Assembly: GCA_964594255.1 (NCBI GenBank)
Contig: CAZQNI010000001.1
Span: 1-26,264, forward strand
Direction: 5' to 3'
Length of the DNA stretch: 26,264 nucleotides
From: an uncultured bacterium
Lineage (GTDB): Bacteria > Hydrothermota > UBA3072
Positions 1 to 21,800 of this stretch are shown here, one piece after another (the first letter of the stretch is position 1; the number at the start of each line of letters is the position of its first letter). Both the position numbers and the translations under genes were made by a program. Below the pieces are notes generated by a model. That model saw nothing but the letters and a program-made list of their open reading frames with translations. It had not been told where the DNA came from and made no database searches.

Positions 1-39
1 TTTGTAATTTTCCATTTTGATATTTGATTTTTTAATTAT
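1..39 (+). repeat. Intergenic heptamer-arm element E1 (arm B only; remainder lies left of the window)
   Basis: tttgtaattttccattttgatatttgattttttaattat matches arm B of the copies at 3241-3293 (reverse complement), 6321-6376 and 9635-9686. Confidence 0.85.
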
Positions 40-54
40 TGCGGCCTTGCCGCA
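40..54. repeat. Mini-hairpin TGCGGC-CTT-GCCGCA capping E1
   Basis: Perfect 6-bp stem with a 3-nt loop. The equivalent AGCGGC-AAA-GCCGCT at 21559-21573 abuts the same arm type of E5. Confidence 0.75.
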
Positions 55-274
55 TTATGTAAAATATTATTGACTAAAGGAAAAAATTTAGCTTTCTGCG
101 AAATATAATTGCATTATGCGAGACACTTTGCGAATTAAGAGTTTATTAATCAAGTGCTTATCTGATGGAATAAAAGTTGTATGTACAGCAAATAGTTCTT
201 TGGTAATTTAGCAGGCGGTAGTGATTGGTTATTAAGGTTATGTCTGAATTAATAACTTTTAAAGGGAGGTGAAA

Positions 275-832
275 ATGAGGAAATTGATTCTTCTAACTTC
301 AATTTTGCCTGTAATGCTTTTTGCTCAGGGTCGTATCACGGGTCCAAGTCCTCAATCTATGATTGCGACTTTGACTTTTATCATTCCAACGTCTGTTGGA
401 ATATATGTGAACAACGATGCTGAGTGGGATTTTAGCAATATAACGCTTAATTCGAGTAATCCCATTTACCCTCCTGCTCTTTATCCAGAGCAATATTATC
501 CAACAACCCCAGCTGCGTCTCCTTATCAGCAGTTAGAATATATGGTAGCTGGTTCCCAATCTGGGAGTCCTGTTAATTGGGTTCTTACAGTTTACGGAAG
601 TGCAGATCCGGGAAGCGGTGTACTTCTTTCGGACATAGAGCATAGTCCTGCGGGAATGGGTTCCTGGGATGTGTTTAATACGTCAGCTGCACCCGATACT
701 CTCGCGAACGGAAGCGGTAATACTGGAGGATGGCAGTCCCTCAATCAAGATTATAGAGTGACTTTAGACGGTGATGAAGAACAGACTGCTGGTGTGAGCT
801 GTGTCTTAACTTATACTATTCAGACTGATTAA
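275..832 (+). CDS. Secreted hypothetical protein, probably a beta-sandwich (pilin/WxL-like C-terminal strand)
   Basis: SD GGAGGT at 265-270 favours ATG 275 over GTG 269. Signal peptide MRKLILLTSILPVMLFA; T/S/G/P-rich body; ends VLTYTIQTD; followed by a terminator. The fold is inferred. Confidence 0.8.
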   Translation: MRKLILLTSILPVMLFAQGRITGPSPQSMIATLTFIIPTSVGIYVNNDAEWDFSNITLNSSNPIYPPALYPEQYYPTTPAASPYQQLEYMVAGSQSGSPVNWVLTVYGSADPGSGVLLSDIEHSPAGMGSWDVFNTSAAPDTLANGSGNTGGWQSLNQDYRVTLDGDEEQTAGVSCVLTYTIQTD

Positions 833-871
833 CCAATAGTCATTTCCACTAAAGAAGTCTGCTAATAGAAC

Positions 872-899
872 AAAAAGGGCGTCAAAAAACGCCCTTTTT
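872..899. terminator. Bidirectional intrinsic terminator
   Basis: AAAAAGGGCGT-caaaaa-ACGCCCTTTTT: perfect 11-bp inverted repeat with A/T tails, between convergent genes. Confidence 0.9.
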
Positions 900-1000
900 A
901 TTTCTATAGTAAAAAACCTTTTTATCGGCGAATTATCCCATTCCTAAACAATCATCCTTACCTTATAGGTCAAAGCAGGGAAAACGGGATACGTTACGTG

Positions 1001-1888
1001 TTACTTAACGCAGATAGCTTTACCGGTTGCTTCTCCTGTATCGGTAGCAACTCTGGTTAAATAAACACCGGCAGCCAAGTCCAAAGGAATGCTGTAGGTA
1101 CCAGCAGGCTGCATGCCAACAGGTATTTCTAATTGCTTTCGACCGGTCAGATCGAAGACCTGTATGATTACCGGTCCACTGGTGTTAATTGCATACTTGA
1201 TGCAGTTAATCGAACCCCTGGCAATGCTAACTCCGTTACCCTGTTCCGGTATTTTAATTCCTGCCTGGCCGGTGGTGTCACAGTACTGACTGGGTACTCT
1301 TCCTTTTGAGCTGATAGCGTCAAAATACAGTGTACAAGCTGGCGGATTAACCTCTGGGTTTGTATGTATTTCGAAATCGCTTTGTATGATTCCAGTCGTG
1401 ATCTCTAAATCATCCGAAATACCATCTTTTAATTCATTCCACCTACCAAAATGTAAATTTCGGGGGTAGTAAGTCGTATGTCCATCATGTTCCCAATCCT
1501 GGTTTCTTACGAAGATAAAGATACTATCGATTGGGGCGTTCCAGGGAATATAAACATAATAATACATCGTATCTCTATTTTCTACGCCGATCAAAAAAGA
1601 TGTATCCCGGTTCTCAGGCTGAGAACCTATGACCGCGTTCTTAGCCATGATATTCCACCTTATACCTTCATGAGTCATACACATCTGGATCGAATGAGTA
1701 CCATGCCACCATTTTTTACCCTCAACAATTGAAAAATCTTCTGGATCACTGTCTCTATAGCCTGTTATAAAGGGTTCCATACCTTCATAATCTGTCTCAT
1801 TGGGCTCAAAACTAAACGCATCTTTTGCAAATGTAGTTAAAGAAAACATTAATATGAGAGCAAATGACAGTAAAATAAACTTTCTCAA
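1001..1888 (-). CDS. Secreted protein: putative carbohydrate-binding (galactose-binding-like) domain plus T9SS/FlgD-type C-terminal domain
   Basis: SD AAGGAGGT (1900-1893) precedes in-frame TTG at 1888 (MRKFILLSFALILMFSLTTFA signal peptide). The C-terminus IIQVFDLTGRK...G.Y...LAAGVYLTRV...TGKAICVK is typical of Por/T9SS-like sorting domains. The Trp/Tyr-rich core ending LYFDAI looks CBM-like. Confidence 0.75.
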   Translation of the reverse strand: MRKFILLSFALILMFSLTTFAKDAFSFEPNETDYEGMEPFITGYRDSDPEDFSIVEGKKWWHGTHSIQMCMTHEGIRWNIMAKNAVIGSQPENRDTSFLIGVENRDTMYYYVYIPWNAPIDSIFIFVRNQDWEHDGHTTYYPRNLHFGRWNELKDGISDDLEITTGIIQSDFEIHTNPEVNPPACTLYFDAISSKGRVPSQYCDTTGQAGIKIPEQGNGVSIARGSINCIKYAINTSGPVIIQVFDLTGRKQLEIPVGMQPAGTYSIPLDLAAGVYLTRVATDTGEATGKAICVK

Positions 1889-2005
1889 ATTTACCTCCTT
1901 TACGTTTAACCTAAACCTAAATTCGTACAATTCTTCTAATTTTTATACGCTGCCTTGGCTCGTTTTCGTAGTTTCCATTTCAACAAGCCCCTCCACCTAT
2001 TATTT

Positions 2006-2034
2006 ATTATATAAATACTTTGATGGTTTGTCAA
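2006..2034 (-). promoter_or_regulatory. Sigma70-type promoter for the 1001-1888 gene
   Basis: Minus strand TTGACA (2034-2029), 17-bp spacer, TATAAT (2011-2006): perfect consensus. Confidence 0.75.
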
Positions 2035-2165
2035 GAGTTAAATTACAACTTATTTCTACTCTTTTACCTTACCCATAAATCAGATAAAAATCTATCCTAG
2101 CCGATAATTTCACTAAGGTAAAACTTAGATTATGTGTCGCGCTGCTAATTTACAAAGAGCTAAAA

Positions 2166-3155
2166 TTATTTAACAAATTGTTTTATTTCGTTCCTGACTA
2201 TTGCAGAAATTTTGTAATCTTTTTTTAAACAGCTTAAGACCAGCGGAAATCTTTCTTTTAATATCAAAATATTAACCTGTGAATACTTTTCCCCCTTGAT
2301 TATTGTCGGTTCATCAGCACATAATTCTTCCGATATTAAGTAATTTCTAACCATTTCAACCTTATTATTGGTGACGTTGAACTTAACGTCAAAATATCTC
2401 CTTGCTGTTACTGCGCCGTACAACTGCTGAAATATATCTTCTGCCTTTTTCTTCTTCCATTTATCGCAAGTAGGCCCCCCATAAAGACTGGCACTCGAAT
2501 GCATGATTTCTTCTATTTCTTTTAAACCATAATCTTTCAATGTTTTTCCGCTTTGCACATTATCTACTATAATATCCGCTCCCTTTGCTATATAGCCTTC
2601 TGTTACTCCATCAGAACTTATAATTTGAACCAATTCGTTTTCTCCTTCAATAAGCCCTCTGATTTGAACTATCGGACTTTTTGTTCCATAATTCGAAATA
2701 TAGGCTTCATTTTTTACAATATAATCTTTCGTAATATTAATATACTCGGTAAAGCATAGAATTGCGTTTTTCCTTTTTTTATTAAAGAAATCGCCAAAAG
2801 ATTCAAAAGAAAGGTTGTTCGGAATAGCCGCAACAATTCTTGTCTTACCGTATTCCAAATCACCTATTTTAAAAATATTGTTTCGGGAATTGGCTATACT
2901 CTCTTCCGTAACCCAATCATCACCGACTATTGCAATATCTAGAAAACCTTTATTCAGTTCTACCGGGGCACTCTGAGGTCGAACAAGATAAACTTCAATC
3001 TCCGGATCGTTTAATATTTTCAATTTTTTGTCGGACTCATTTCCGGGTTCATATCCCATTATATCATATCCCGAGTCAATGAGTAATTGATGAGTATTTC
3101 CTCTATCTTTTGTATTTAAGCTACCCTTAGGGAGACCTAATTTAATTGTATTCAT
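2166..3155 (-). CDS. hisG: ATP phosphoribosyltransferase, long form with C-terminal regulatory domain
   Basis: KLGLPKGSL, VRPQSAP..L..G.LDIAIVGDDW..E, DLEYGKTRIVAAIP, G.TE...GADIIVDNVQSGKTLKDYGL and a C-terminal YFDVKFNV...PTI domain. SD GGAGGG 7 nt upstream of ATG 3155 (the track's TTG 3170 is less likely). Confidence 0.9.
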   Translation of the reverse strand: MNTIKLGLPKGSLNTKDRGNTHQLLIDSGYDIMGYEPGNESDKKLKILNDPEIEVYLVRPQSAPVELNKGFLDIAIVGDDWVTEESIANSRNNIFKIGDLEYGKTRIVAAIPNNLSFESFGDFFNKKRKNAILCFTEYINITKDYIVKNEAYISNYGTKSPIVQIRGLIEGENELVQIISSDGVTEGYIAKGADIIVDNVQSGKTLKDYGLKEIEEIMHSSASLYGGPTCDKWKKKKAEDIFQQLYGAVTARRYFDVKFNVTNNKVEMVRNYLISEELCADEPTIIKGEKYSQVNILILKERFPLVLSCLKKDYKISAIVRNEIKQFVK

Positions 3156-3176
3156 CCGCAAACCCTCCAAATAAAA

Positions 3177-3204
3177 AATATAGTCGCCTTTATTCCTTTG
3201 TCAA
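3177..3204 (-). promoter_or_regulatory. Sigma70-type promoter for hisG
   Basis: TTGACA (3204-3199), 16-bp spacer, TATATT (3182-3177). Confidence 0.65.
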
Positions 3205-3240
3205 GCTCCGATATCACCACACAACACCAACAAACCCCCA

Positions 3241-3414
3241 AAAATTAAAAATTAAATATCAAAATGGAAAATTACAAATTAAAGTTCAAAAATATACTAA
3301 AAAAAACAACAAATAAGAAATCCCATTTGATCTGCGTAAATTCGCGTGCTATCATTTTTTAGTTTTTACGTTTTCATTTGTCATTTTGCTTTTTAATTTT
3401 TAATATTTAATTTC
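3241..3414 (-). repeat. Intergenic heptamer-arm element E2 (complete, reverse orientation)
   Basis: Arms 3241-3293 and 3362-3414 align as an ungapped imperfect inverted repeat (40/53 matches by hand count) made of ~7-bp units (AAAAATT, AAATATC, AAAATGG). Each arm matches the corresponding arm in E3, E4 and E5. Confidence 0.9.
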
Positions 3415-3496
3415 TTACGAAAAATAAATAAGACGAGTCATTTTATCAAAAAACAAAAAGATAGAATTATAGTACTATATAATTATAAAATAGCAC

Positions 3497-3524
3497 TTGA
3501 TATTTTTATTAAATCATATATTCT
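3497..3524 (+). promoter_or_regulatory. Possible sigma70 promoter for the MBL hydrolase
   Basis: TTGATA, 16-bp spacer, TATTCT. The context is very AT-rich, so chance matches are possible. Confidence 0.4.
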
Positions 3525-3558
3525 CCATAAAGATAAATGTATTATTAAGGAGGTCAAG

Positions 3559-4923
3559 GTGAAAATAGAATTTTACGGGGCGACAAAAGAGGTTACAGGA
3601 AGTAAATTTTTGCTAATCTCTAATGGTATTAAAGTACTAATCGAATGCGGTCTTTTTCAGGGAAGGCGAAAAGAGGCGGAAAAGAAAAACCGAGAATTTT
3701 TGTTTAATATTGAAGATATTGACTATATGCTTCTTTCTCACGCGCACATTGACCATTCAGGTAATATACCAAATCTGGTGAAAAACGGATTTTCCCAGGA
3801 TATCTACACAACCCCTGCGACTATTGATCTCCTCAAATATCTCCTACTCGATTCGGCTTACATCCATGAAAGAGACGCCGAATATATTAATAAAAAGATA
3901 ATGAAAAAGGGAGAAGACCCAATAGAGCCTCTATATACAGTTGAGGACGCTAAAGAATCACTTAACCTTTTTAAACCCAAAGTTTACGAAAATAAGCATC
4001 AAAGAGGCATTAATTTCGAGTTTTTGGATGCCGGTCATATACTGGGTTCATCTGAGATTATAATGGAGTTAGAGGGGAAAAGAATTCTTTTTACCGGTGA
4101 CCTTGGGAGAAGCAACCTTCCTATAATAAGGAATCCTAAAGTACCGGGAAAGGTAGACATACTTATTATAGAAAGCACCTACGGCAATAGATTACATAGA
4201 GATATAGAAAATGCAAAAAAAGACCTTGAGGAAATCTTAAAAAGAGCCATAAATAGAAAAGGCAAAGTTATAATTCCTTCATTCGCGCTTGAAAGAGCCC
4301 AGGAAATAATATACGCAATCAATTCGCTGATAATAAACGGAAAAATACCTGAAATACCCATTTATGTTGATTCTCCTCTTACTGTTGAGATAACAAGTGT
4401 ATTTATTAAACATCCAGAATATTTTGACAAAGAGGCATACAGAATGCTCCAGGAAAATCACATTTTTAACTATGGAAAGATAAGCTACATAAAGGATGTG
4501 GAACAATCGAAAGCATTAAATACTAAAGAAGGACCTATGATTATAATCTCAGCTTCGGGTATGTGTGAGCACGGAAGAATACTGCATCATTTGAAGAACA
4601 ATATTGAAGATGAGAGAAATGTAATACTCATTGTGGGATACCAGGCAAAAAACACTCTCGGCAGGAAACTTGTTGAAAAACAGGAAGTAGTGAATATCTT
4701 CGGTCAGCCTTATGAAAGGAGAGCAGAGGTTGTTGTCCTTAATGAATTCAGCGCGCATGCTGATAGAAACGACCTTGTATCTTTCGTAGAGAAAGTCTCA
4801 CCAGAAAGAATCTTCTTAGTTCACGGAGAAGAAGACCAGATGGAGCCTCTTGGTGTGAGTTTAAAGGAAATGGGATATAATGTTGAGATGCCTGAGGTAC
4901 CGGGAACTAAATACGAGATATGA
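3559..4923 (+). CDS. Metallo-beta-lactamase/beta-CASP fold hydrolase (YSH1/TTHA0252-like RNase family)
   Basis: GATKEVTGS, ECGLFQG, SHAHIDHSG (HxHxDH), AGHILGS, TGDLG, ESTYG, SASGMCEHGRILHHL, FSAHAD and LVHGE motifs. SD AAGGAGG before GTG. Confidence 0.93.
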   Translation: MKIEFYGATKEVTGSKFLLISNGIKVLIECGLFQGRRKEAEKKNREFLFNIEDIDYMLLSHAHIDHSGNIPNLVKNGFSQDIYTTPATIDLLKYLLLDSAYIHERDAEYINKKIMKKGEDPIEPLYTVEDAKESLNLFKPKVYENKHQRGINFEFLDAGHILGSSEIIMELEGKRILFTGDLGRSNLPIIRNPKVPGKVDILIIESTYGNRLHRDIENAKKDLEEILKRAINRKGKVIIPSFALERAQEIIYAINSLIINGKIPEIPIYVDSPLTVEITSVFIKHPEYFDKEAYRMLQENHIFNYGKISYIKDVEQSKALNTKEGPMIIISASGMCEHGRILHHLKNNIEDERNVILIVGYQAKNTLGRKLVEKQEVVNIFGQPYERRAEVVVLNEFSAHADRNDLVSFVEKVSPERIFLVHGEEDQMEPLGVSLKEMGYNVEMPEVPGTKYEI

Positions 4924-4951
4924 GAAATATGTATGAAGAAATTACTAAACC

Positions 4952-4979
4952 TTGACATTTAATCAGAAAATTTTATATT
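4952..4979 (+). promoter_or_regulatory. Sigma70-type promoter for the DUF378 gene
   Basis: TTGACA (4952-4957), 16-bp spacer, TATATT (4974-4979). Confidence 0.65.
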
Positions 4980-5003
4980 AGTAAAGGAAAAAGGAGGTGT
5001 AGT

Positions 5004-5204
5004 ATGAAAAAATTAAATATTATTGACATTATTGCCCTGATTCTCTTGATCATTGGCGGATTAAACTGGGGACTCGCGCTATTTAACATCAACTTAGTTC
5101 CACTTATATTCCGTGTAGATATATTAATAAAAATCGTATACGCGCTTGTCGGAATATCCGCAATTTACATTTTAGTCATTATAGGTAAATTGGGCAAAAA
5201 ATAG
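5004..5204 (+). CDS. DUF378 (YuzA-like) small membrane protein
   Basis: IALILLIIGGLNWGL..FNINLV..IF...IVYALVGISAIY matches the DUF378 signature. SD AAGGAGGT. Confidence 0.9.
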   Translation: MKKLNIIDIIALILLIIGGLNWGLALFNINLVPLIFRVDILIKIVYALVGISAIYILVIIGKLGKK

Positions 5205-5221
5205 TAGAGAAGTTAATTTCA

Positions 5222-5263
5222 TATTACAAAACGGGTGATTTATCAATCACCCGTTTTGTAATA
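5222..5263. terminator. Bidirectional terminator hairpin between DUF378 and xth
   Basis: TATTACAAAACGGGTGATT-tatc-AATCACCCGTTTTGTAATA: perfect 19-bp inverted repeat between convergent genes. Confidence 0.85.
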
Positions 5264-5331
5264 AAATAGATTTTTTATTGTTTTTCAGAGTAATAGACTT
5301 CTTCTACATATTTATAGAGGCGAGCGCGGTA

Positions 5332-6099
5332 TTATTTTATTCGCAGAAGAATAGGGGCATGGTCAGAACCATACACATCCGAAAGGATAACCGACTTCTC
5401 CACTCTATCAATTAAACCCGCAGTTACAAAAAAATAATCTATCCTCCAGCCAATATTTTTCTTTCTTGCATTGAACCTGTAAGTCCACCAAGTGTACGTT
5501 TCGGCTCTTACAGGATAAAAATGCCTGAATGTATCGAAATATCCTTTTTCCAACAGTTTATCAATCCATTCTCTCTCAATAGGGAGAAATCCCGAATACT
5601 TTTCGTTTTCTTTTGGGTTTGCAAGATCTATCTCTCTGTGAGCGGTGTTGAAATCTCCTGTAATTACAAGTTCCTCGCCTTGCTCTCTAAGCCCCTCACA
5701 TAATTCCAAAAATGCATCATAATAGTCAAGTTTAAATTTAAGACGCTCTTCACTGCTTTTTCCGTTTGGGAAATAAACGTTAAGTAAAGTAAAATCAGGG
5801 TATTTTAGCCTGATAAGTCTACCTTCATTATCAAACCGTTCTATTCCAATACCAAAATCAACTTCTTCGCATTTTTCTTTTGATAGGACTAAAACTCCGC
5901 TGTATCCCTTTCTTTCTGCTGAATTCCAATAAGAATTATATCCTTCAAGATTAAGAAATTCTTCTAATTCTATCTGAGTTTTATCTGCTTTTATCTCCTG
6001 TAAACAGAGCACATCGGGTTTTTGGCTTTCGAACCATTGGCTAAAACCTTTTTTTAGTATCGCCCGGAGACCATTTACGTTGAAGGAAACAATATCCAT
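5332..6099 (-). CDS. xth: Exodeoxyribonuclease III / AP endonuclease
   Basis: SFNVNGLRA, DVLCLQEIK, GYSGV, EGR, NVYFPNG, GDFNTAH, YTWWTYR..AR.KNIGWRIDYF and SDHAP motifs. Confidence 0.96.
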   Translation of the reverse strand: MDIVSFNVNGLRAILKKGFSQWFESQKPDVLCLQEIKADKTQIELEEFLNLEGYNSYWNSAERKGYSGVLVLSKEKCEEVDFGIGIERFDNEGRLIRLKYPDFTLLNVYFPNGKSSEERLKFKLDYYDAFLELCEGLREQGEELVITGDFNTAHREIDLANPKENEKYSGFLPIEREWIDKLLEKGYFDTFRHFYPVRAETYTWWTYRFNARKKNIGWRIDYFFVTAGLIDRVEKSVILSDVYGSDHAPILLRIK

Positions 6100-6177
6100 A
6101 TGTTATATAGTATTACCAGTCAATTTTTTGTTTTTTGCAAAAGAATATATCATTTAATTCTACCGCCTTTCTCTACT

Positions 6178-6376
6178 AAATCAAATATAAAAAATTAAAA
6201 TGCAAAATGACAGATAAAAATGTGAAATTATTCCTTCCCCCAACTTTAAAACCCAAAAAATCTTTGTGCTCTTTGTAATCTTTGTGGTTCGATCACTATT
6301 CGGTGGGATGTTGAGTTTTAGATTTTTGAACTTTGATTTGTCGTTTTCCATTTTGATATTTAAATTTTACATTTTG
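6178..6376 (+). repeat. Intergenic heptamer-arm element E3 with an internal 9-bp tandem repeat
   Basis: Arm A 6178-6228 and arm B 6321-6376. 6203-6244 vs 9532-9573 match 38/42; 6321-6341 vs 9635-9655 match 21/21. The core has tttgtgctc/tttgtaatc/tttgtggtt (6263-6289). The element ends at the base next to the hisF stop codon. Confidence 0.9.
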
Positions 6377-7141
6377 TTATAGCTTTACATTCAGGCCTTT
6401 TTCCCTCAAATATTTTTTAACCTCTTCGATGCTTAAAATACGGAAGTGAAAAACCGAAGCTGCTAAAAGAATATTGGCTCCCCCTTCGACTACTCCTTTA
6501 TAAAAATGTTCAAGAGTTCCTGCACCACCCGAAGCGATTACCGGCAGACTGACCTCGTCGGAAATTGCTCTGGTAAACTCTATATCATACCCTGCTTTGG
6601 TTCCATCACCGTCCATACTCGTGGGCAGAATTACTCCTGCCCCCAGTTCTTCACACTGCTTTGCCCACTCTACCGCATCTTTTCCTACGGGTTTTGTGCC
6701 TCCCGCGACTACTACCTCAAATCCTGAAGGCATTTCATTATTTCTTCTGCCGTCAATTGCTATCGTTATCTTTTCTGAGCCGAAAGCAGAAACCGCATCA
6801 TTAACCAAGTCCGGATTTTTCACTGCTGCGCTATTCATAGAAATCTTATCCGCACCGGCATCAAGAACTAACTTTATATCCTCTAAAGTCGAAATTCCGC
6901 CCCCGACTGTCAAAGGGATATTGATAACCGAAGAAACGTTTTTAACCCATTCCAGCCGTGTTTTTCTGTTTTCCAGAGTTGCAGCGATATCCAGCATGGC
7001 AAGCTCATCCGCACCTTCTTTTTGATAAAACGCAGCGTTTTCTACAGGATCTCCTGCTTCTTTCAAATTAACAAAATGAACACCTTTAACGACACGTCCT
7101 TCTTTCATGTCCAGACAGGGCATAATTTTTATCTTATCCAT
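6377..7141 (-). CDS. hisF: Imidazole glycerol phosphate synthase cyclase subunit
   Basis: IMPCLD..GRVVKG, GDPVE.A..Y..EGADEL..LDI.A, IPLTVGGGI, GADKISMNSAAV, AIDG, ILPTSMDGDGTKAGYD, PVIASGGAG, LAASVFH. Catalytic Asp residues are present. Confidence 0.95.
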   Translation of the reverse strand: MDKIKIMPCLDMKEGRVVKGVHFVNLKEAGDPVENAAFYQKEGADELAMLDIAATLENRKTRLEWVKNVSSVINIPLTVGGGISTLEDIKLVLDAGADKISMNSAAVKNPDLVNDAVSAFGSEKITIAIDGRRNNEMPSGFEVVVAGGTKPVGKDAVEWAKQCEELGAGVILPTSMDGDGTKAGYDIEFTRAISDEVSLPVIASGGAGTLEHFYKGVVEGGANILLAASVFHFRILSIEEVKKYLREKGLNVKL

Positions 7142-7197
7142 ATTTTCTCCCTTTTTTTAAAACGAACATATTATTATTTTTAAATATAAGCTTTCAG

Positions 7198-9411: not shown

Positions 9412-9465
9412 TATCCCCCCATTTTCTAATTGTTAAAAGCTTTTCTTTATTTATGTTCCAACTTA

Positions 9466-9493: not shown

Positions 9494-9501
9494 GATTGAA
9501 T

Positions 9502-9686
9502 AAATCAAATGAAATATCAAAAATTAAAAAGCAAAATGACAAATAAAAATGTAAAATTATCCCTTCACCCAACCCTAGAAACTAAAAAAATTTGTGCTAT
9601 CTGTGTGATTTGTTGTTACTTTGTTTTTTTTATTGATTTTTGAACTTTGATTTGTAATTTTACATTTTGATATTTGATTTTTATAT
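9502..9686 (+). repeat. Intergenic heptamer-arm element E4
   Basis: Arm A aaatcaaatgaaatatcaaaaattaaaaagcaaaatgacaaataaaaatgtaaaa and arm B gatttttgaactttgatttgtaattttacattttgatatttgatttttatat. Nearly colinear with E3. Confidence 0.9.
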
Positions 9687-9785
9687 TCTAAAGGCTTTGA
9701 CATAAAAGGTTTCTTCAACTAGTAAGGTTGACAGTATTGTATAAATGCCCTTGACTTTATTACCTTTTATTTGTAATTATTTTGT

Positions 9786-11756: not shown

Positions 11757-11767
11757 GAAAAAAATTT

Positions 11768-11786
11768 AACCACAGAAAACACAGAG
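11768..11786 (+). repeat. Stand-alone 9-bp-period repeat arm (aaccacagaaaacacagag)
   Basis: Same family as 21629-21647 and 21672-21690, and as the reverse complements at 6263-6289, 19177-19206 and 23917-23946. Confidence 0.75.
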
Positions 11787-13049: not shown

Positions 13050-13089
13050 ACAACTTGTAGGATCGTTTGATAATAACAACAAGAAATTA

Positions 13090-13125
13090 ATGTGCGAGGT
13101 CAATAGGCCTCGCACATACTTTTTA
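13090..13125 (+). terminator. Intrinsic terminator after the FecR gene (convergent with the esterase)
   Basis: ATGTGCGAGG-tcaatagg-CCTCGCACAT, 10-bp stem followed by acttttt. Confidence 0.85.
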
Positions 13126-13132
13126 GTAAATA

Positions 13133-15082: not shown

Positions 15083-15141
15083 CAATAATACCTCCTTTAC
15101 TTTTTATAAGTTAGGATTTCAATCATTTCCGATTTAACTTG

Positions 15142-15546
15142 TTACGCTCCCGATATCGTCACCAGTATATTCCTGCTACTTCTCGGTCCGTCGAACTCAC
15201 AGAAAAATATATTCTGCCAGGTTGACAAACCCAATTTACCTTCAATTATCGGAATAGTTTCGCCGGGACCTACAATACCTGCTTTCAGATGAGCATCCGC
15301 ATTCCCATCCTGAACGTCATGTTTCCAGATTCCCCGGGGTATAAGCTTCCGGAGTAAGTCAACAACATCCTGTTGAACACTGTCATCCCAATTTTCCTGA
15401 ATCATTATTGCTGAAGTTGCTCCCTGAGCATAAACATTTACAAATCCCGATTTTACGTCAGATTCTTTAACGCACTCCGCTACCTGCGAGGTTATATCGT
15501 ATAACCCTTCTCTATTGGTTGTAGTTATGTTTATCGTTTTCTGCAT
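15142..15546 (-). CDS. yjbQ: YjbQ / UPF0047 family protein
   Basis: DIT..V...V..S.V..G...V...G.T.AI.IQEN.D..V..D, HD...GNADAHLKA, LG.STWQNIFFCEFDGPR..R. Confidence 0.93.
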   Translation of the reverse strand: MQKTINITTTNREGLYDITSQVAECVKESDVKSGFVNVYAQGATSAIMIQENWDDSVQQDVVDLLRKLIPRGIWKHDVQDGNADAHLKAGIVGPGETIPIIEGKLGLSTWQNIFFCEFDGPRSSRNILVTISGA

Positions 15547-15557
15547 CTATATTCCAA

Positions 15558-16601
15558 TTACCTGATGTTTTTTTGTCCGTCAAGAGGAGTCTTCATCCAC
15601 AGGTTATAGTTGTCCTTGGGTAAAAGCTCCAATTTATTCATGTCATATTTTTCCCGATTGGAGTTATACTTATCGTAAAAACCATTTTCAAACTCATAAA
15701 CTTTACCGCTAAGCGGGTCATATAATCTTTCCTTTCCCAGAATTGCATCGCTCCACTTTTCCGAAAGGATATCTTCGGTTTTATTTCTTGCCTCCCATCC
15801 CTTCATTATAATATCCGAAGTTTCACTCAATGTCTTGCCGGCTTTAAGAATACCGGCATAGGTGCTTGCCTGCTGTCTCAAACAATTGTTAACATAGTTT
15901 CGGCTAACCCAGAAACTTTTGATTGAATTGACGAGAGACTTTTCTAAATCTTTGAATTCCTCTTTAGGAGCGGTAATACCTGTAACAAGAAAACCATAAC
16001 CTATACCTCCACCAGGATTTCCGGTATAAGGAAGCATTGGTGCAACTGTTATCAAAAACAAACCTTCGCCAAGTTTTCCGTTCTTTGTAAATAAAGCCCT
16101 CAAAAGTTCCGTACTGCCTCCCGGAATTGGACACGGCTCGGATTTCCTTGAAACGATTTTGATATTTTCAAGCCTGGGGCACCCGGGCATAAATTGCTGG
16201 GCTACCTGGCTTTTTGCAATTATATGAAAATTTAAAAGAAATTCTCCCGGATTTAGAGGATTAACTGCGGGCATATCAATCCAGCCTACCGGGTATCCTC
16301 CCATACTCATATACTGTTGGTCTATCTGTTTCTGCTGTAAATTTAAGTAAACCGGACCGACTTCTCCAAAATAAAAGATCTGCCTTAAAGACTCGGAAGG
16401 GTCTCGAATTAAAAAAGCAAAAGAGCCGCATGTCCCGGCAGTGATTATTTTCCATCCTTTTGGCTTATTGATGGAGAAAAAACCTCCCTCGAATTTTCCC
16501 ATTTTTAATTTATAAGTGGCACTCACTACAGGATAAGTCCGCAAAAGAATTCCCGGAATGAGAAGCAAAGCCAATATTCTCATTAAACGAAAGTTCCTCA
16601 T
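15558..16601 (-). CDS. Secreted hypothetical protein
   Basis: Long ORF with SD (AAGAGGAGGT) and a signal-peptide-like N-terminus ending PVVSA. No family recognised. Confidence 0.8.
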   Translation of the reverse strand: MRNFRLMRILALLLIPGILLRTYPVVSATYKLKMGKFEGGFFSINKPKGWKIITAGTCGSFAFLIRDPSESLRQIFYFGEVGPVYLNLQQKQIDQQYMSMGGYPVGWIDMPAVNPLNPGEFLLNFHIIAKSQVAQQFMPGCPRLENIKIVSRKSEPCPIPGGSTELLRALFTKNGKLGEGLFLITVAPMLPYTGNPGGGIGYGFLVTGITAPKEEFKDLEKSLVNSIKSFWVSRNYVNNCLRQQASTYAGILKAGKTLSETSDIIMKGWEARNKTEDILSEKWSDAILGKERLYDPLSGKVYEFENGFYDKYNSNREKYDMNKLELLPKDNYNLWMKTPLDGQKNIR

Positions 16602-16616
16602 TTTTTACCTCCTCTT

Positions 16617-17744
16617 TCAATCTACAATTTTGTATTTATCTCTTATAATTTTAGCGTTCGGCGGATTATACTGGATTCTTATTGTTTTCGTATTTCTCTC
16701 GAACCGGACAAGACTTGTTGTTTTTCTGCTTCTCTGCATTTTTATCATCGAAGAGTGCACCTTTGGAGATAAATTTTTATCCATCTTATTATCTTTTCTT
16801 ACATAGATTTTCCTGATAGATTTCTTCCAACCCAGACCCAAAAAATGAAAAACAAATTCTTCATTTTTTCCGATTGTCGTATAACTCTTTAACAAATCCT
16901 TCTTGAACTTAATTTTGGTCTTATATTTCTTTGAATGCTCTATAAGCTTATCCACCATAAATTGAAGAGAAATTTTGCCCAAGGCATCTTCCTTATAACT
17001 TCCGCCAACATCCGAATGTACCCCGGGAAACCAGACTTCTTCAACTATACCAGGCTTATAATTCATCAATGTGGGTATGTAGGCATTTCTTGTCTCATCC
17101 AGACAAACGCAATGCACAGCTTTTTTAACGTGCTTTCTAACACGCATGTTCTTAAAAAGATTCAACCTTTGTAAGGGCAACCCCAGAATATTTACAGGGA
17201 TACCAAAAGCCCCCACAGTATCCCATACACCAAGGAATTCGACATCAACGTCCTGCCTTTTACCGCTTGAAATATAACGCACGAATCTGTCTTCGATGTT
17301 TCTTGTTGCTCTATTGGCAAAAGGTTTCCATGTTACTTTAATATTTTCCGGAATACCTTCTTCGTAAAGCTGATTCGCGAGTATTCTGGCACTCGCTGCT
17401 CCTCTACTGAATCCAAAAATGTGAATTCTGTCTCCCTTATGATATTCTCTTACAACCGTCGCATAGGCTTCATCTCTAATTCTTTTTTCATCTCTTCCTG
17501 TACCTCCGCATATATACCTTCCAAAAAATCCGTAATCATCATCATTTCCAATGCCTCTAAAATATCTTGAAATTTGTTTCGGAGAATCTTCCTTCAAAGA
17601 TTTGTAGAGTTTAACAACATTAGTGACAAGTCCGCTACACTGTTTTCCGTTTTCATCATTCCATGTCCCATCCATAAATATGAAAACATTCCTTTCCCTG
17701 GTCTTGGCATCGAAATCTTTCTTGTATTCTTTTTCTATCCTCAC
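16617..17744 (-). CDS. DUF2235 (Tle1-like alpha/beta hydrolase, putative phospholipase)
   Basis: IFMDGTWND, TNVVKLY, YFRGIG, IFGFSRGAASAR (GxSxG), FLGVWDTVG, HCVCLDETR, EEVWFPGVHSDVGG. SD AAGGAGG before GTG. Confidence 0.9.
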   Translation of the reverse strand: MRIEKEYKKDFDAKTRERNVFIFMDGTWNDENGKQCSGLVTNVVKLYKSLKEDSPKQISRYFRGIGNDDDYGFFGRYICGGTGRDEKRIRDEAYATVVREYHKGDRIHIFGFSRGAASARILANQLYEEGIPENIKVTWKPFANRATRNIEDRFVRYISSGKRQDVDVEFLGVWDTVGAFGIPVNILGLPLQRLNLFKNMRVRKHVKKAVHCVCLDETRNAYIPTLMNYKPGIVEEVWFPGVHSDVGGSYKEDALGKISLQFMVDKLIEHSKKYKTKIKFKKDLLKSYTTIGKNEEFVFHFLGLGWKKSIRKIYVRKDNKMDKNLSPKVHSSMIKMQRSRKTTSLVRFERNTKTIRIQYNPPNAKIIRDKYKIVD

Positions 17745-17784
17745 TTTCTATCCCCTCCTTTACTTAATATTTACTTTATAATGT

Positions 17785-18264
17785 TTAATCTTCCTCATCC
17801 CAGTAATGATGTGGTTGCCCTTTGTTTATCCATTCCTCAAGACCCATAGCTTTGATCTCTTTTAAATTTTTTAGCATGGCTTCATAATGAAGCCCCTCCA
17901 TAATTGATTTAAGTTTTTCACAAACTTCAAAATCGCCACACTCATAACATGCAAAAAAACCCTTACTTCTACAGCATTTTCTAACTTCACAGGCTACATT
18001 ATCGTCCTTCCTTTCCCTGCAAACCATCGGACACCTTAAACTTGCCATAAAAACTATTCTATCAAAAATTTTATCATAGTCTTTAAGTTGATCGGTAAGA
18101 ATACATTTGGCCGATTTCTCGAATTTATATTTCTCCAGCACTGCTTTAAAATCCTCTGCGGCATCGGCAATCACACCAGTATGACCCAGACAATCACCGC
18201 AATAAAAACCACAGTATGCAAGTGATTCTTTTCTTATCTTATCTACCTTACCACATTTAGCCAT
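17785..18264 (-). CDS. DUF3795 Cys-rich protein
   Basis: AYCGFYCGDC...C...CEVRKCC..KG...C.ECGDF..C pattern. Confidence 0.85.
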   Translation of the reverse strand: MAKCGKVDKIRKESLAYCGFYCGDCLGHTGVIADAAEDFKAVLEKYKFEKSAKCILTDQLKDYDKIFDRIVFMASLRCPMVCRERKDDNVACEVRKCCRSKGFFACYECGDFEVCEKLKSIMEGLHYEAMLKNLKEIKAMGLEEWINKGQPHHYWDEED

Positions 18265-18278
18265 TGAATTTTAAACTC

Positions 18279-19055
18279 CTACTTCTTAATTTTATTCATA
18301 ATATTCATAAATCTTGTATTGCTTATCGGGTGGTCTGCAATAACTTTTCCGTCATATATAATACAGAATGTTCCGAATGGACGTGGAGCCTCCTGCGCTT
18401 CTTTATAATTTTTAAGTTTTACTAAATTCGGTTTTATACCGTATGTGTTTTGGGAAGTCTCTACTATTTCTTTGACATTTTTTACAGAATAAGGACACTG
18501 ATCTGCTCTAATTATAGTTAAACCCTTACCGTACAAATTCAGTTTTTCCTCCCGGTTACTCTTGAAATGCGGCGTTGGTGCTTTTTTATTGATTTTTTTC
18601 ACAAGTAACTCAAAATCAGGTAGTGATTTATCCACAATTTCAAATGAATTTTTCAAAAAGAATTCATTTCCAACCATAAATGGACCCTTACGGGTCACAA
18701 CAGCTACTCCATACATATTTTCACTTTTAGCATCCCTAAAACATTCCTCCAATAACATTGTAGCGTATCCTTTATTCTTATAAGCCTTTTTAAACCCTAC
18801 AAAAACACAATGGATAAACATATAGCCGGCTGCCTCGACCGGTCTCCAGCAATATTCTCCGGGTATGTATTCAATCATTCCCTGGTTTTTATCTTTATCC
18901 GAATACAAAGTTTTTATTTTCAGACCTTCGGCAAAACGTTTTTTCAACCATCCAACTTTTTCCGGGAATCCCGGGGTATTAATGTTTTTATAACCACAAA
19001 CTCCGATCCTAAGAATATTGTCTGAATTCGTATCAATGACTTTTATTTCTTCCAT
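18279..19055 (-). CDS. GNAT-family N-acetyltransferase with a C-terminal YoaP domain
   Basis: K..WLKKRF.EGL, GMIEYIPGEY.WRPV.A.GYMFIHC.FV....KNKGYA..LL..C, and the C-terminal QCPY...V...A...P.PFGTFCIIYDGK typical of YoaP fusions. Confidence 0.88.
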   Translation of the reverse strand: MEEIKVIDTNSDNILRIGVCGYKNINTPGFPEKVGWLKKRFAEGLKIKTLYSDKDKNQGMIEYIPGEYCWRPVEAAGYMFIHCVFVGFKKAYKNKGYATMLLEECFRDAKSENMYGVAVVTRKGPFMVGNEFFLKNSFEIVDKSLPDFELLVKKINKKAPTPHFKSNREEKLNLYGKGLTIIRADQCPYSVKNVKEIVETSQNTYGIKPNLVKLKNYKEAQEAPRPFGTFCIIYDGKVIADHPISNTRFMNIMNKIKK

Positions 19056-19093
19056 TTGAATTTCCCCTTTTCATGTTCTAAGTTTATTTTTTT

Positions 19094-19122
19094 ATTCTAA
19101 GCAATAATCAAAGTCATGTCAA
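19094..19122 (-). promoter_or_regulatory. Sigma70-type promoter for the minus-strand accessory cluster
   Basis: TTGACA (19122-19117), 17-bp spacer, TAGAAT (19099-19094). Confidence 0.7.
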
Positions 19123-19176
19123 GTCACAGAAATTACCTTTTAAAAGCACATAAATTAAGAATAGGTGTTGTGTGGT

Positions 19177-19206
19177 TTTGTACTCTTTGTGTTCTTTGTG
19201 GTTCAA
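19177..19206 (-). repeat. Stand-alone 9-bp tandem repeat arm
   Basis: tttgtactc-tttgtgttc-tttgtggtt-caa; nearly identical to 6263-6290 and 23917-23946. Confidence 0.85.
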
Positions 19207-19237
19207 AAAAATGCTTGCACACAAATAAGAAAATGTG

Positions 19238-19265
19238 TTGACAATATTTAATCATAAATTATAAT
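19238..19265 (+). promoter_or_regulatory. Sigma70 promoter of folB-folK-dNK-panC, probably giving a leaderless mRNA
   Basis: TTGACA, 16-bp spacer, TATAAT; ATG starts 7 nt after the -10 with no SD. Confidence 0.8.
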
Positions 19266-19272
19266 CAAATAA

Positions 19273-19617
19273 ATGAAAAGCATAGGACTTACAGGTGTAA
19301 TTGTAAATAAAGTTTGCGGATTCGGTAAAGAAAGAGAGCGGCCTCAAAAAATAGGCGTCGATGTTTATCTCGAAACTGATTTCAAAAATGTTGCAGAAGA
19401 AGATGACCCATCGTTCGGAATTGATTTTAGAACTATTTATACCTTAATAAGGACAGGTTTAGAAGGGGAAATTTACACTCTTGAAAAGGCGGCACTTTCA
19501 ATCTGGGAACAAATGAAAAGTCTTGATAATGTCGGGAAAGTCAAAATCACGGTTAAAAAAATCAATCCTCCTTTTCAAGATAAAGTAAAAGATTCCTGGG
19601 TCACAATAGAAGAATAA
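19273..19617 (+). CDS. folB: Dihydroneopterin aldolase family protein (divergent)
   Basis: G..ERE..Q.I.VDV.L..D......DD....IDF..IY, LEK.A..I, V.ITVKKINPP; sits directly upstream of folK. Confidence 0.85.
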   Translation: MKSIGLTGVIVNKVCGFGKERERPQKIGVDVYLETDFKNVAEEDDPSFGIDFRTIYTLIRTGLEGEIYTLEKAALSIWEQMKSLDNVGKVKITVKKINPPFQDKVKDSWVTIEE

Positions 19618-19621
19618 TGAA

Positions 19622-20119
19622 ATGACAAAAGCATATCTTTCTCTTGGCTCAAACATAGGTGATAAGGAAACAAATCTACTGAAAACGTTCATACAGATTT
19701 CAAAACTGGGAGAAGTGAAAGGATCACATTTATACAGAACAGAACCCTGGGGTAGGGACGACATACCGGAATTTTTAAATGCATGCGTATACATAAAGAC
19801 TGGGTTGAACATAAAAAACCTCTTTCATGCCTTGCGTTCTATTGAAGACAAAATGGGAAGAAAAAGAAAAGAAAAATGGGGGGCTAGAATTATCGACATT
19901 GACATATTGCTCTCGGAGCAATTAATATTCGTAAGCCCCGAGCTAAACGTTCCCCACCCTTACCTTCAGATACGAAACTTTTACCTTAAACCACTTTCCG
20001 AAATAACAAAAGAAGAGATAGAACCGGTTAGTGGAGAAAAAATTAAAACTCTGCTGGAAAATTGTCCAGATAAAAAAAGAGTATGGAAAACTGGGAATAT
20101 ATTGCAATTGAAGGCGTAA
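19622..20119 (+). CDS. folK: 2-amino-4-hydroxy-6-hydroxymethyldihydropteridine diphosphokinase
   Basis: AYLSLGSNIGD, S.LY.TEPWG, FLNAC, IE..MGR.R..KWG.RIIDIDIL, L.VPHP....RNF.L.PL.EI. Confidence 0.96.
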   Translation: MTKAYLSLGSNIGDKETNLLKTFIQISKLGEVKGSHLYRTEPWGRDDIPEFLNACVYIKTGLNIKNLFHALRSIEDKMGRKRKEKWGARIIDIDILLSEQLIFVSPELNVPHPYLQIRNFYLKPLSEITKEEIEPVSGEKIKTLLENCPDKKRVWKTGNILQLKA

Positions 20120-20718
20120 TAGGTGTAGGAAAGACAACTCTGGCAAAGTTCCTTTCTCAAGAGTACAATGCAAAGGCATTACTCGAAGACATTGATGGAA
20201 ATCCCTTCCTTCCTCAATTTTACGAGGATCCGGAAAGATACGCTTTCCCGACTCAAATTTTTTTTCTTCTTTCCCGGTACAACGAACTTAGAAATCTAAC
20301 GAATAGAGAGCTTTTTACCAGAAAGATCATTTCCGATTATACTTTTGATAAGGACAGGATATTCGCATTTATAAATCTTGAGAAGAGAGAGAAAAGTCTA
20401 TATGAGAAAATTTACAATCTTCTTGATAAAGATATTATAAAACCGAATCTTGTAATCTATCTTCAGGCAAGCCTTGATACTTTAATGGAAAGAATAAAGG
20501 GTAGAGGAAGAAGTTACGAAAGGAGAATAAAAGAAGATTATATAAAAATCCTTATTAGTTCGTACAACGAGTATTTTTTTCATTTCCAAAAAAGCCCGGT
20601 ATTGATTTTAAATTCCAATGAATTTGATTTCTTAAGTGAGCCCTCTCACCTTAAGCTATTGAAAAAAGAAATTGCCTCGATAAAGACCGGAACACACTAT
20701 TTATCTGTCGCTCAATGA
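20083..20718 (+). CDS. Deoxynucleoside kinase (dAK/dGK family)
   Basis: IAIEGVIGVGKTT P-loop, NPFLPQFY, F.TQIFFLLSRY, SDY.F.KD.IFA, PNLVIYLQA, RIK.RGRSYE. Confidence 0.93.
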   Translation: MENWEYIAIEGVIGVGKTTLAKFLSQEYNAKALLEDIDGNPFLPQFYEDPERYAFPTQIFFLLSRYNELRNLTNRELFTRKIISDYTFDKDRIFAFINLEKREKSLYEKIYNLLDKDIIKPNLVIYLQASLDTLMERIKGRGRSYERRIKEDYIKILISSYNEYFFHFQKSPVLILNSNEFDFLSEPSHLKLLKKEIASIKTGTHYLSVAQ

Positions 20719-21575
20719 AAATTTTCAGAACAATAAAAGAACAACAAAATTATTCTTTAAACGAGAAATACCGGAACGTTAAAATAGCTTTAGTGCCCAC
20801 AATGGGATTTCTACACGGAGGTCATTTAAGCCTTATAGATAAGGCAAAAGAAAATGCGGATCAAATAATCGTATCCATTTTCGTTAATCCCACTCAATTT
20901 GGAGAAGGAGAGGATTATAAAGAATATCCAAGAGACGAAAGAAAAGATTTGGAACTCCTTAGAGAAAAAAATGTTGATGCAGTTTTTATACCCGAAACAG
21001 CCGAAATGTACCCGGAGGGTTTTAAAACTTTTTGTGAAGTCCGTGAACTTTCGAAGAAATACTGCGGAAAAAGCAGACCAGCTCATTTTCGGGGAGTGGC
21101 TACTGTGGTCTTAAAATTATTAAATATAACAAAACCGGATATCGCCGTTTTCGGAGAAAAAGATTATCAACAATACATCATAATAAAAACAATGACTGAA
21201 GATCTGAATTTGCCGATAGAAATTATTCCGTCCCCAATTATAAGAGAAAAAGATGGTCTGGCTGTTAGCTCAAGAAATATTTACCTGGCAAAGGAAGAAA
21301 GAAATGAAGCCACTATTATATATGAATCTCTAATTATGGCAAAAAAAATGGTTGATAAAGGTAAATACAGAGTAAATTTATTAAGGGAAAAAATGAATGA
21401 ATTGATAAAACCGAAAAGTCATGTACATATAGACTACATTGAATTTGTTAATCCCCAGACTCTGAAAAAAGTTGAAAAAGTAGAAAACCCAACTAGAATT
21501 TTAATCGCGGTATGGATAGGTAAGGCGAGATTAATAGATAATATGGAAGTAAGACCGAAGCGGCAAAGCCGCTAA
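20715..21575 (+). CDS. panC: Pantoate--beta-alanine ligase
   Basis: LVPTMGFLHGGHLSL, VSIFVNPTQFG..EDY..YPR, SRPAHFRGVATVV.KL, FGEKDYQQ, REKDGLA.SSRN.YL, RLIDN. ATGA overlap with the kinase gene. Confidence 0.97.
   Translation: MKIFRTIKEQQNYSLNEKYRNVKIALVPTMGFLHGGHLSLIDKAKENADQIIVSIFVNPTQFGEGEDYKEYPRDERKDLELLREKNVDAVFIPETAEMYPEGFKTFCEVRELSKKYCGKSRPAHFRGVATVVLKLLNITKPDIAVFGEKDYQQYIIIKTMTEDLNLPIEIIPSPIIREKDGLAVSSRNIYLAKEERNEATIIYESLIMAKKMVDKGKYRVNLLREKMNELIKPKSHVHIDYIEFVNPQTLKKVEKVENPTRILIAVWIGKARLIDNMEVRPKRQSR
21559..21573. repeat. Mini-hairpin AGCGGC-AAA-GCCGCT capping E5 (overlaps the last panC codons)
   Basis: Perfect 6-bp stem. Counterpart of 40-54 in the same position relative to arm B. 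Confidence 0.75.
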
Positions 21576-21800
21576 AATGTAAAAATTAAATATCAAAATG
21601 GAAAATGGATTTAAAAAAGAAAAAGATTAACCACAGAGGACACAGAGAAATAATTGTGTTAAAAAAGAAAAAACCACTGAGAACACAGAGAAAAAAAGAA
21701 AATAAAAACTCTGTGATCTCTGTGTTAAAGAAATCCTGGGTGAAAAGGTGGGCTCTGTGTTTTTTATTGATTTTGCTTTTTGATTTTTAATATTTAATTT
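21574..21800 (-). repeat. Intergenic heptamer-arm element E5 with nested 9-bp inverted repeats
   Basis: Outer arms 21574-21608 (B type) and 21767-21800 (A type). Inside are aaccacagaggacacagag (21629-21647), aaccactgagaacacagag (21672-21690) and the inverted ctctgtgatctctgtgtt (21709-21726). Confidence 0.88.

Follow-up and report, generated by a model that had tools for sequence, protein, structure and literature searches.

What are the short inverted-arm repeats that lie between the housekeeping genes of an uncultured Hydrothermota bacterium, and what were they derived from? The stretch of DNA that raises this question, which we call the window, comprises positions 1 to 26,264 of contig CAZQNI010000001.1 (assembly GCA_964594255.1). 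Its 26.3 kb have a G+C content of about 35% and carry housekeeping genes that include hisG, a beta-CASP RNase gene, xth, hisF, a TonB-dependent receptor gene, a folB-panC cluster, and polA. An earlier note on this DNA had described five inverted-arm elements, here called E1 to E5, and we retain its names for the two arms: arm A, which is A-rich, and arm B, which is T-rich. Here we describe other loci in which the same arms form the two ends of a cassette of about 460 to 600 bp encoding a 123-aa four-helix-bundle protein. It is likely, in our judgment, that E1 to E5 are gene-less, decaying derivatives of that cassette.

Arms A and B as the ends of a four-helix-bundle cassette

The window holds four complete elements and one, E1, that is cut by its edge. 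A search with a 26-mer from arm B, allowing up to three mismatches, gave five matches (8-33, plus strand; 3246-3271, minus; 6344-6369, plus; 9658-9683, plus; and 21580-21605, minus) and none in 100 shuffles, placing the five copies where the earlier note had put them. All are intergenic, and they occur in both orientations. A 33-mer from arm A matched three times, with zero matches expected and none in shuffles; the A arm of E5 is more diverged and still alignable. The arms had been described as built from units of about 7 bp, and their self-identity at a lag of 7 nt was indeed 0.669, compared with 0.455 ± 0.02 in shuffles (z = 10.6). Within one copy the two arms are 72 to 75% complementary over 43 to 53 nt, whereas the same arm is 86 to 92% identical between copies. 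The individual figures quoted previously were reproduced (40/53, or 75% over 53 nt, for the two arms of E2; for E3 and E4, 86% identity both on the A side, over 83 nt, and on the B side, over 58 nt), and A and B can be treated as sequences with separate identities.

In one locus of a metagenome-assembled genome (MAG), L067, an open reading frame (ORF) on the opposite strand stands between these same A and B arms. Its product matched the Pfam family PF05635, "23S rRNA-intervening sequence protein," with 73.8 bits against a cut-off of 33.8. In NCBIfam it falls into TIGR02436, "four helix bundle protein," and its closest solved structure is 2RLD. We then searched metagenome contigs with the L067 protein, retrieved 57 loci, and placed the arms on them with nhmmer. 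In at least 12 of the 57 (L117-L124, L126-L128, and L137), the B arm lies over the start of the ORF and the A arm follows directly after its stop codon, and a related arm covers the ORF start in about 25 further loci. The earlier note had wondered whether the elements might be the cargo-free form of an arm system around four-helix-bundle genes and had proposed looking for an A...B pair that encloses an ORF; the inference held when tested, and the enclosed ORF is this PF05635 gene.

Read in the direction of the gene, arm B consists of the A-rich leader AAATCAAATATCAAA followed by ATG GAA AAT GAC AAA TCA AAG TTC AAA AAT, the first ten codons, which encode MENDKSKFKN. Because the TIGR02436 match starts at residue 13 or 14 of the cargo protein, arm B codes for an N-terminal tail ahead of the conserved domain. 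The arms are thus more than the flanks described earlier, since arm B holds the start codon and first codons of the gene. In reverse complement, arm A starts immediately after the stop codon. It is an inverted duplicate, since diverged, of a 5' end of this kind, and its AAGCAAAATGACAAAT is the counterpart of ATGCAAAATGACAAAT in the "MQNDKS" cassettes. This origin accounts for the fact that A and B are complementary and yet have separate identities.

When E2 to E5 were aligned with filled cassettes (alignment A2), they matched at both ends and left a gap of about 330 nt for the gene body. None of the window copies encodes the four-helix-bundle protein. All that remains is the ATG and up to 10 relic codons: MENYK... 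in E1, MENYKLKFKN... in E2, MENDKSKFKN... in E3, M* in E4, and MENGFKKEKD* in E5.

Intact cassettes are oriented with their neighbors. In 28 of 34 loci the cassette was co-oriented with both flanking genes, a ratio of 17 contexts to 1 after orthologous contexts had been merged. rRNA was absent from all 20 of the filled loci that we searched for it, the cassettes lying between protein-coding genes and beside tRNAs. Intact cassettes therefore sit in sense orientation in ordinary gene strings, as rRNA intervening sequences (IVSs) do in the rRNA transcript. Gene-less copies between tandem genes were unbiased (12 in one orientation and 11 in the other). The duplex between the 5' and 3' arms of filled cassettes was better than in shuffles (z < -2) in 24 of 35 cases, with a median z of -2.7, and the fold of the whole filled L117 cassette had a z of -2.6. 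With this complementarity, the two ends can pair over about 50 AU-rich bp and so close off the ORF.

A single flanking-gene context carries an intact cassette in 15 metagenome loci (L131, L138, L142, L144, L146-L151, L153, L154, L157, L159, and L160). The three of these that were read (L138, L148, and L157) have the order leuC-cassette-leuD in sense orientation, which looks like an old insertion inside an operon.

Other four-helix-bundle genes have different AT-rich inverted arms. One, at L067 3860-4480, has heptads of the TTGTAAA type and lies beside a tRNA; another, at L011 5720-6200 on a Patescibacteria contig, is enclosed by a perfect 31-bp inverted repeat. From these two cases the arm-flanked architecture seems to be general for the protein family. 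At L058 (4281-6558), A and B arms stand 2.2 kb apart around an HEPN_AbiU2 gene and a 332-aa ORF of no assigned function. This single case may represent a cargo of defense type enclosed by cassette arms, or else a pair of half-elements with no relation to each other. A crude scan of all retrieved loci with a strict GxxExxY motif found no such gene.

Layout of E1 to E5 and their sites in relatives

The element positions given in the earlier note were right, and the units proved to be larger than it had drawn them: E1 (41-53) and E5 (21560-21572) have a GCGGCnnnGCCGC hairpin following the B arm, E4 retains it in decayed form, and E3 has a repeated module of about 75 nt on the outer side of its A arm (6100-6177). 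The cores do differ between copies, as had been said. They are not random, however, but mosaics of short tandem-unit modules such as CTYTGTGNNCTYTGTGGTT, which had 10 matches against 0.28 expected.

E1 (1-53, minus strand) is cut by the window edge and retains the GCGGCAAGGCCGC hairpin (41-53), the leader, an ATG at 15-13, and the codons MENYK, which together form a 5' arm (arm B); the remainder lies off the window. E2 reads on the plus strand. Its 5' arm (the reverse complement of arm B, 3240-3296) has the leader AAATTAAATATCAAA and an ATG at 3264-3266 followed by the relic MENYKLKFKN, and was aligned in A2 with the filled loci L117, L120, and L122. A "type II" core (3297-3363), with its ATCTGCGTAAATTCGCGTGCTATC... 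module, occupies the place of the gene body, and the same core is found in L024, L025, L047, L049, L060, and L077 (alignment A3). The 3' arm of E2 (the reverse complement of arm A, 3364-3413) is a diverged inverted copy of a 5' arm.

E3 lies on the minus strand between hisF and xth. Its 3' arm (arm A, 6178-6227) is followed by a core (6228-6318) containing the 9-mer tandem module TTTGTGCTCTTTGTAATCTTTGTGGTT and by a 5' arm (arm B, 6319-6376) with an ATG at 6351-6349 and the relic MENDKSKFKN. This arm abuts the hisF stop codon (6377-6379). The extra module (AGTAGAGAAAGGCGGTAGAATTAAATGATATATTCTTTTGCAAAAAACAAAAAATTGACT..., 6100-6177, minus strand) is located between E3 and xth; it is promoter-like and recurs beside A arms in other genomes. 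E4, also on the minus strand, has its 3' arm (arm A) at 9507-9556, ending about 13 nt upstream of the -35 element of the native promoter of the TonB receptor gene, then a core (9557-9632) with a decayed 9-mer tandem module and a 5' arm (arm B, 9633-9703) in which a TAA comes directly after the ATG (9665-9663) and the decayed hairpin relic CTAAAGGCTTTGACAT occupies 9688-9703. E5 reads on the plus strand. Hairpin and 5' arm together span 21560-21610, with the hairpin GCGGCAAAGCCGC at 21560-21572, a TAA at 21573-21575, and then the arm itself with an ATG at 21598-21600 (MENGFKKEKD*). Its core (21611-21763) holds three copies, in both orientations, of a CACAGAG-type 9-mer module, and its diverged 3' arm (arm A, 21764-21800) stops 5 nt short of the next gene's ATG (21806).

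We found syntenic contigs of relatives through homologues of the TonB receptor gene, whose product was 92% identical in L112, 89% in L174, 81% in L113, 77% in L175, 73% in L176, and 72% in L115 and L116. The E3 site, between hisF and xth, carries the element in the window, L174, L175, and L113, although in L113 the B arm has been replaced by another module. It is empty in L112, where hisF and xth stand 14 nt apart, and holds unrelated inserts in L115 and L176. At the E4 site the window has the element, L113 a remodelled form, L175 an expanded mosaic of 772 nt, and L176 a solo arm, and E4 is absent in L174 and L115. A comparison of orthologous sites for filled and empty forms, as the earlier note had recommended, did reveal such differences. 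No target-site duplication was visible in it, and no base-exact junction was readable at the filled and empty sites, the relatives being too diverged.

At the E5 site, L115 has no arms and its panC ends in ...EVKP*, whereas panC in the window ends in ...EVRPKRQSR*, running through the hairpin GCGGCAAAGCCGC to the TAA of the element (21560-21575). In the window, panC thus takes its stop and its five final codons from E5, and the L115 gene stops five codons earlier. At the E1 site, L115 keeps only the hairpin and the 5' arm, and at this boundary L112 carries an inverted-arm module of another kind. The elements are old residents, subject to gain, loss, erosion, and overwriting.

The 772-nt mosaic at the E4 site of L175 (2389-3161) has the same outer arms around a chain of modules, in which CACAGAG repeats are joined by another GCGGCAAAGCCGC hairpin, one more instance of the promoter-like module, and the palindrome "gtcattacgag...cgcgaagtaatc". 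Other inverted-arm modules of short tandem units share the sites of A/B elements or nest in them (L112 5842-6112 and 8998-9401; L113 16103-16343; L110; L060 4713-4969), among them GCTATTAGCC...GGCTAATAGC, CCGCTTACCGCC...GGCGGATAGCGG, and ACATGTAG repeats. They suggest that low-complexity inverted repeats form a broader class, in which modules turn over rapidly.

Tandem 9-mer modules (TTTGTGCTC TTTGTGTGC TTTGTGGTT and CACAGAG variants) also occur in the window as solo copies, at 11768-11786 (minus strand), 19185-19203 (plus), and 23916-23943 (plus), in addition to those within the cores of E3, E4, and E5. The solo copies lie about 30 to 35 nt upstream of -35 boxes, at the folB-operon and polA promoters, and the variants ATTCGTG, ATCCGTG, and ATCTGCG make up element cores in other genomes. 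The modules could represent an array of protein-binding sites or else a small repeat family in its own right. A scan of the window with Rfam found no rRNA and only a sub-threshold match to U7 small nuclear RNA, unrelated to the elements (17845-17897, 30.2 bits against a gathering score of 34). This match lies in or beside a coding region and is almost certainly due to chance. A tRNA search of the window found none.

Distribution, mobility, and competing explanations

We looked across genomes, one per species, for exact matches to a 25-nt degenerate pattern of the B arm. At least 108 loci matched, in WOR-3, many lineages of Patescibacteria, Omnitrophota, Planctomycetota, Nitrospirota, Bacteroidota, one gammaproteobacterial MAG, and other MAGs, and some MAGs carried more than 15 such loci each among the matches listed. 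The pattern was absent from 2.9 million viral contigs, and a phage origin was rejected on this ground. Separate nhmmer profiles of the two window arms, a scan with hidden Markov models that had been proposed earlier, gave 124 B arms, 50 A arms, and 44 A...B pairs less than 450 nt apart among the matches listed. An intact gene was found at 1 of the 124 B arms of this genome scan, again among the matches listed, where gene-less copies outnumber intact ones by about 100 to 1. The protein subfamily of the cargo, for its part, comprises more than 3,000 clusters at 90% identity.

E2 and the loci that share its core form a type-II gene-less subfamily with 80% column identity across arms and core and with unrelated flanks (A3). 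Since the similarity of this family includes the core, at unrelated loci of several genomes, the gene-less unit has dispersed as a whole. This subfamily and the filled and empty orthologous sites bear out the earlier view that the unit spreads entire and does not arise by local slippage. Independent slippage in AT-rich intergenic DNA, without common descent, would fit the strong 7-nt periodicity of the arms and the heptad-level differences between orthologous arms of the window and L113. It is nevertheless contradicted by the alignments: zero chance matches are expected, the 86 to 92% similarity across copies includes non-periodic cores, and dozens of loci have these same arms joined to a conserved ORF start. 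We regard slippage as extremely improbable.

Several results weigh against a derivation of E1 to E5 from mobile, gene-bearing cassettes. A profile of the ORF body, run with nhmmer, had no match in the window, and an anchored position weight matrix of the last 30 nt of the ORF gave p values of about 0.1 to 0.9 in the window copies. A relic of the 3' end of the ORF in E3 and E4, plausible in alignment A2, was rejected as not significant by both tests. With no detectable remnant of the ORF body in the window, it is the arms that carry the case for a deletion derivative, and arms that hold a different, non-coding cargo are an equally possible alternative to internal deletion. The remaining points concern movement and pairing. 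Copies inside one genome are at most about 82 to 92% identical, so no recent burst is visible, and in this lineage E3 and E4 are old, having been passed on vertically. No target-site duplication was visible at the 44 complete copies or in A3, and neither a mobilizing enzyme nor a recent transposition was found, so any current mobility is hypothetical. The earlier note had likewise seen no transposase and no duplications, and there is no transposase ORF in the window or at the syntenic loci. In the gene-less copies the arms carry uncompensated mismatches and the stem has decayed; a hairpin there was no better than in shuffles (E4, z of +0.55 and -0.85). Finally, we rejected a sense-strand RNA signature, since pairing showed no asymmetry between sense and antisense (Wilcoxon p = 0.52; 110 versus 103 G-U pairs), and there is accordingly no sign that pairing acts in RNA rather than DNA.

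If the elements do move, they might be ordinary miniature inverted-repeat transposable elements (MITEs), that is, internally deleted insertion sequences that a DDE or other transposase moves in trans by recognizing their terminal inverted repeats. They are small, gene-less, multi-copy, and intergenic, they differ in presence and absence between relatives, and they have the imperfect terminal inverted repeats of a MITE, with a common core AAATYAAATATYAAAA at both ends. Every filled copy, however, carries the 123-aa four-helix bundle and never a transposase, the 5' arm is the start of that cargo ORF, and neither target-site duplications nor a transposase gene came to light at the places just named. 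This makes ordinary MITEs a quite unlikely explanation. The mosaic, modular build of the elements (arms, 9-mer tandem modules, and GC hairpin) and their extragenic position beside stop codons would also suit repeats of the repetitive extragenic palindrome (REP) type and its hairpin-forming doublets (REPINs), or of the bacterial interspersed mosaic element (BIME) or BOX type, mobilized as single-stranded hairpins by a REP-associated tyrosine transposase (RAYT) or other HUH enzyme. So would the missing target-site duplications and the ability of the inverted doublet to form a hairpin. The arms are nonetheless AT-rich, about 50 nt long, and not individually palindromic, they are the ends of a protein-coding cassette, and a search of the retrieved loci that was not exhaustive found no Y1/HUH gene in any of them; such repeats are a very improbable answer.

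The elements could instead be functional regulatory DNA: portable promoters, UP-element-like A/T tracts, or bidirectional terminators kept for expression. Sigma-70-like hexamers read outward in the arms of E4 (TTTACA-17-TATATT) and E2 (TTGTCA-17-TAATAT), all four A arms of the window face towards a gene start, B-like arms in Patescibacteria stop 4 to 13 nt short of start codons, and a promoter-like module follows the cassette. Against this, there is no overall bias in orientation, A arms facing 21 starts and 22 ends and B arms 58 starts and 56 ends among the matches listed, and the numbers of complete elements in tandem, convergent, and divergent intergenic regions roughly follow the lengths of these regions. 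The native promoters at E2 and E4 are outside the element, and they are also conserved where relatives have no element. Promoter-like matches were only modestly in excess of an AT-rich background (32 versus 21.4 ± 4.4), and the elements contain no terminator-like sites, which disposes of a role as terminators. The unbiased orientation and the native promoters outside the elements rule out an outward promoter as the primary role of the arms, and we consider regulatory DNA in general an unlikely explanation. The window copies are probably selfish or neutral DNA with side effects, among them the new panC stop codon from one copy, the split between hisF and xth by another, with a promoter-like module adjoining, and, from all copies, A/T tracts beside promoters.

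Two observations on promoter-like sequences deserve separate mention. The module of about 75 nt (…GAAAAAG..GGTAAAATTAAATGGAATATTTTTTTGCAAAAAA.ACAAAA.TTGAYT..TAATA…), seen in the window at 6100-6177, lies 3' of the 3' arm of the cassette and before the next gene, and it also stands to the left of A arms in L028, L045, L057, L060, L061, L067, and L104. It looks like a portable promoter that would restore downstream expression, for example, that of xth after the hisF-xth split. In ten loci, mostly from Patescibacteria (L017, L023, L031, L036, L070, L087, L091, L093, L102, and L108), a B-like arm ends 4 to 13 nt ahead of the start codons of unrelated genes, rplT and rpmA among them. The sequence runs TTTACA-N17-TAAATT-N7-ATG/GTG, as in a promoter for a leaderless mRNA, and relic arms may have been co-opted as promoters in these bacteria of the candidate phyla radiation (CPR).

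Relation to rRNA intervening sequences and a possible role for the family

The cargo gene links the elements to a known kind of insertion. IVSs with an S23p/PF05635 ORF are known from the 23S rRNA genes of Leptospira and Coxiella burnetii; that of Coxiella is 428 to 444 nt long, has a terminal inverted-repeat stem of 28 bp, and is cut out by RNase III (PMC4990558). Insertions in the 16S and 23S rRNA genes of CPR bacteria carry ORFs of this family too (bioRxiv 10.1101/2024.02.27.582315). The closest known kind is thus the ORF-bearing rRNA IVS, of which the present elements are a variant outside rRNA with MITE-like derivatives. The two share the PF05635/TIGR02436 cargo, a similar size (about 460 nt for the ORF and arms together versus 428 to 444 nt), terminal inverted repeats able to close the ORF in a stem (in filled relatives; decayed in the window copies), the sense orientation of intact copies in a longer host transcript, and a sporadic distribution over taxa, which for the present elements suggests horizontal transfer. 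Unlike rRNA IVSs, which are defined by their location inside 23S or 16S rRNA, the elements of the window and the 20 filled loci lie outside rRNA. Their arms, moreover, are imperfect, rich in AT, and periodic in heptads, the start codon and the N-terminal tail belong to the 5' arm, and gene-less derivatives far outnumber intact copies. The earlier note had put the elements forward as a candidate for an undescribed system. In part this stands, since we found no description in the literature of extra-ribosomal cassettes of this family or of gene-less forms; the 23S IVS with this ORF and terminal inverted repeats, however, was already known (PMC4990558). To that known kind the present elements, outside rRNA, add heptad-periodic arms over the start codon and abundant MITE-like gene-less derivatives across phyla.

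The elements resemble other systems in part only. Like MITEs, they are gene-less intergenic sequences, short and present in many copies, that retain just the ends of a longer gene-bearing parent and spread in their gene-less form as a unit; unlike MITEs, they have a parent whose only cargo is PF05635 and not a transposase, show no target-site duplication, and have two distinct rather than near-identical ends. They share with the BIMEs of Escherichia coli and the BOX elements of pneumococci a build of arm, variable internal modules, and arm, an exchange of modules at orthologous sites, and a position near stop codons and promoters, although the sequence families are unrelated and the outer modules here derive from a coding cassette. 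In contrast to REPs and REPINs, their arms are AT-rich and not self-palindromic, and no RAYT was seen in the retrieved loci, in which no dedicated search was made. PF05635 has been described as Avd-like (PMC10053308), and the cargo protein does resemble Avd, the nucleic-acid-binding accessory protein of diversity-generating retroelements, in being a four-helix bundle; its closest solved structure is 2RLD. Its match to the NCBIfam Avd model (22.7 bits) is nevertheless below the equivalog cut-off of 80, and the cassettes have no adjacent reverse transcriptase or template and variable repeats. We treat this distant likeness as a lead only.

By analogy with the IVSs of Coxiella and Leptospira, we propose that the intact cassette would be an IVS-like unit placed in mRNA operons and transcribed by readthrough from promoters of the host. 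The double-stranded stem formed by its arms would be processed by an RNase III-type enzyme, and the insertion would be tolerated for this reason. Gene-less copies would be non-autonomous hitch-hikers or relics, MITE-like in keeping only the ends recognized by whatever moves the cassette. A broader reading, which we offer tentatively and regard as rather doubtful, is that four-helix-bundle genes with inverted arms constitute one class of autonomous selfish "intervening" cassettes in many bacterial phyla. These would colonize operons and rRNA genes, be tolerated through processing of their arms from the host transcript, and be spread by the four-helix-bundle protein itself, which might, for example, bind the arms and recruit a host polymerase or recombinase, with the window elements as their MITE-like satellites.

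For the host genomes, such insertions can rewrite gene ends, as in panC, and split operons, as between hisF and xth, and they account for broken contigs and for spurious small ORFs in MAGs that are AT-rich. It is to the cassette behind the decayed window copies, rather than to those copies themselves, that the wider interest attaches. PF05635/TIGR02436 proteins are very abundant in uncultured bacteria and have no function assigned. Here the gene and its defined inverted arms, which reach across its start codon, travel together, in sense orientation in ordinary operons, and gene-less copies of the arms litter the genomes of WOR-3, CPR bacteria, and other phyla. Arm-dependent RNA processing, binding of the protein to the arms, and mobilization of gene-less copies in trans are testable predictions. 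If the broader reading is true, it would give a role to this very large protein family and explain the origin of rRNA intervening sequences.

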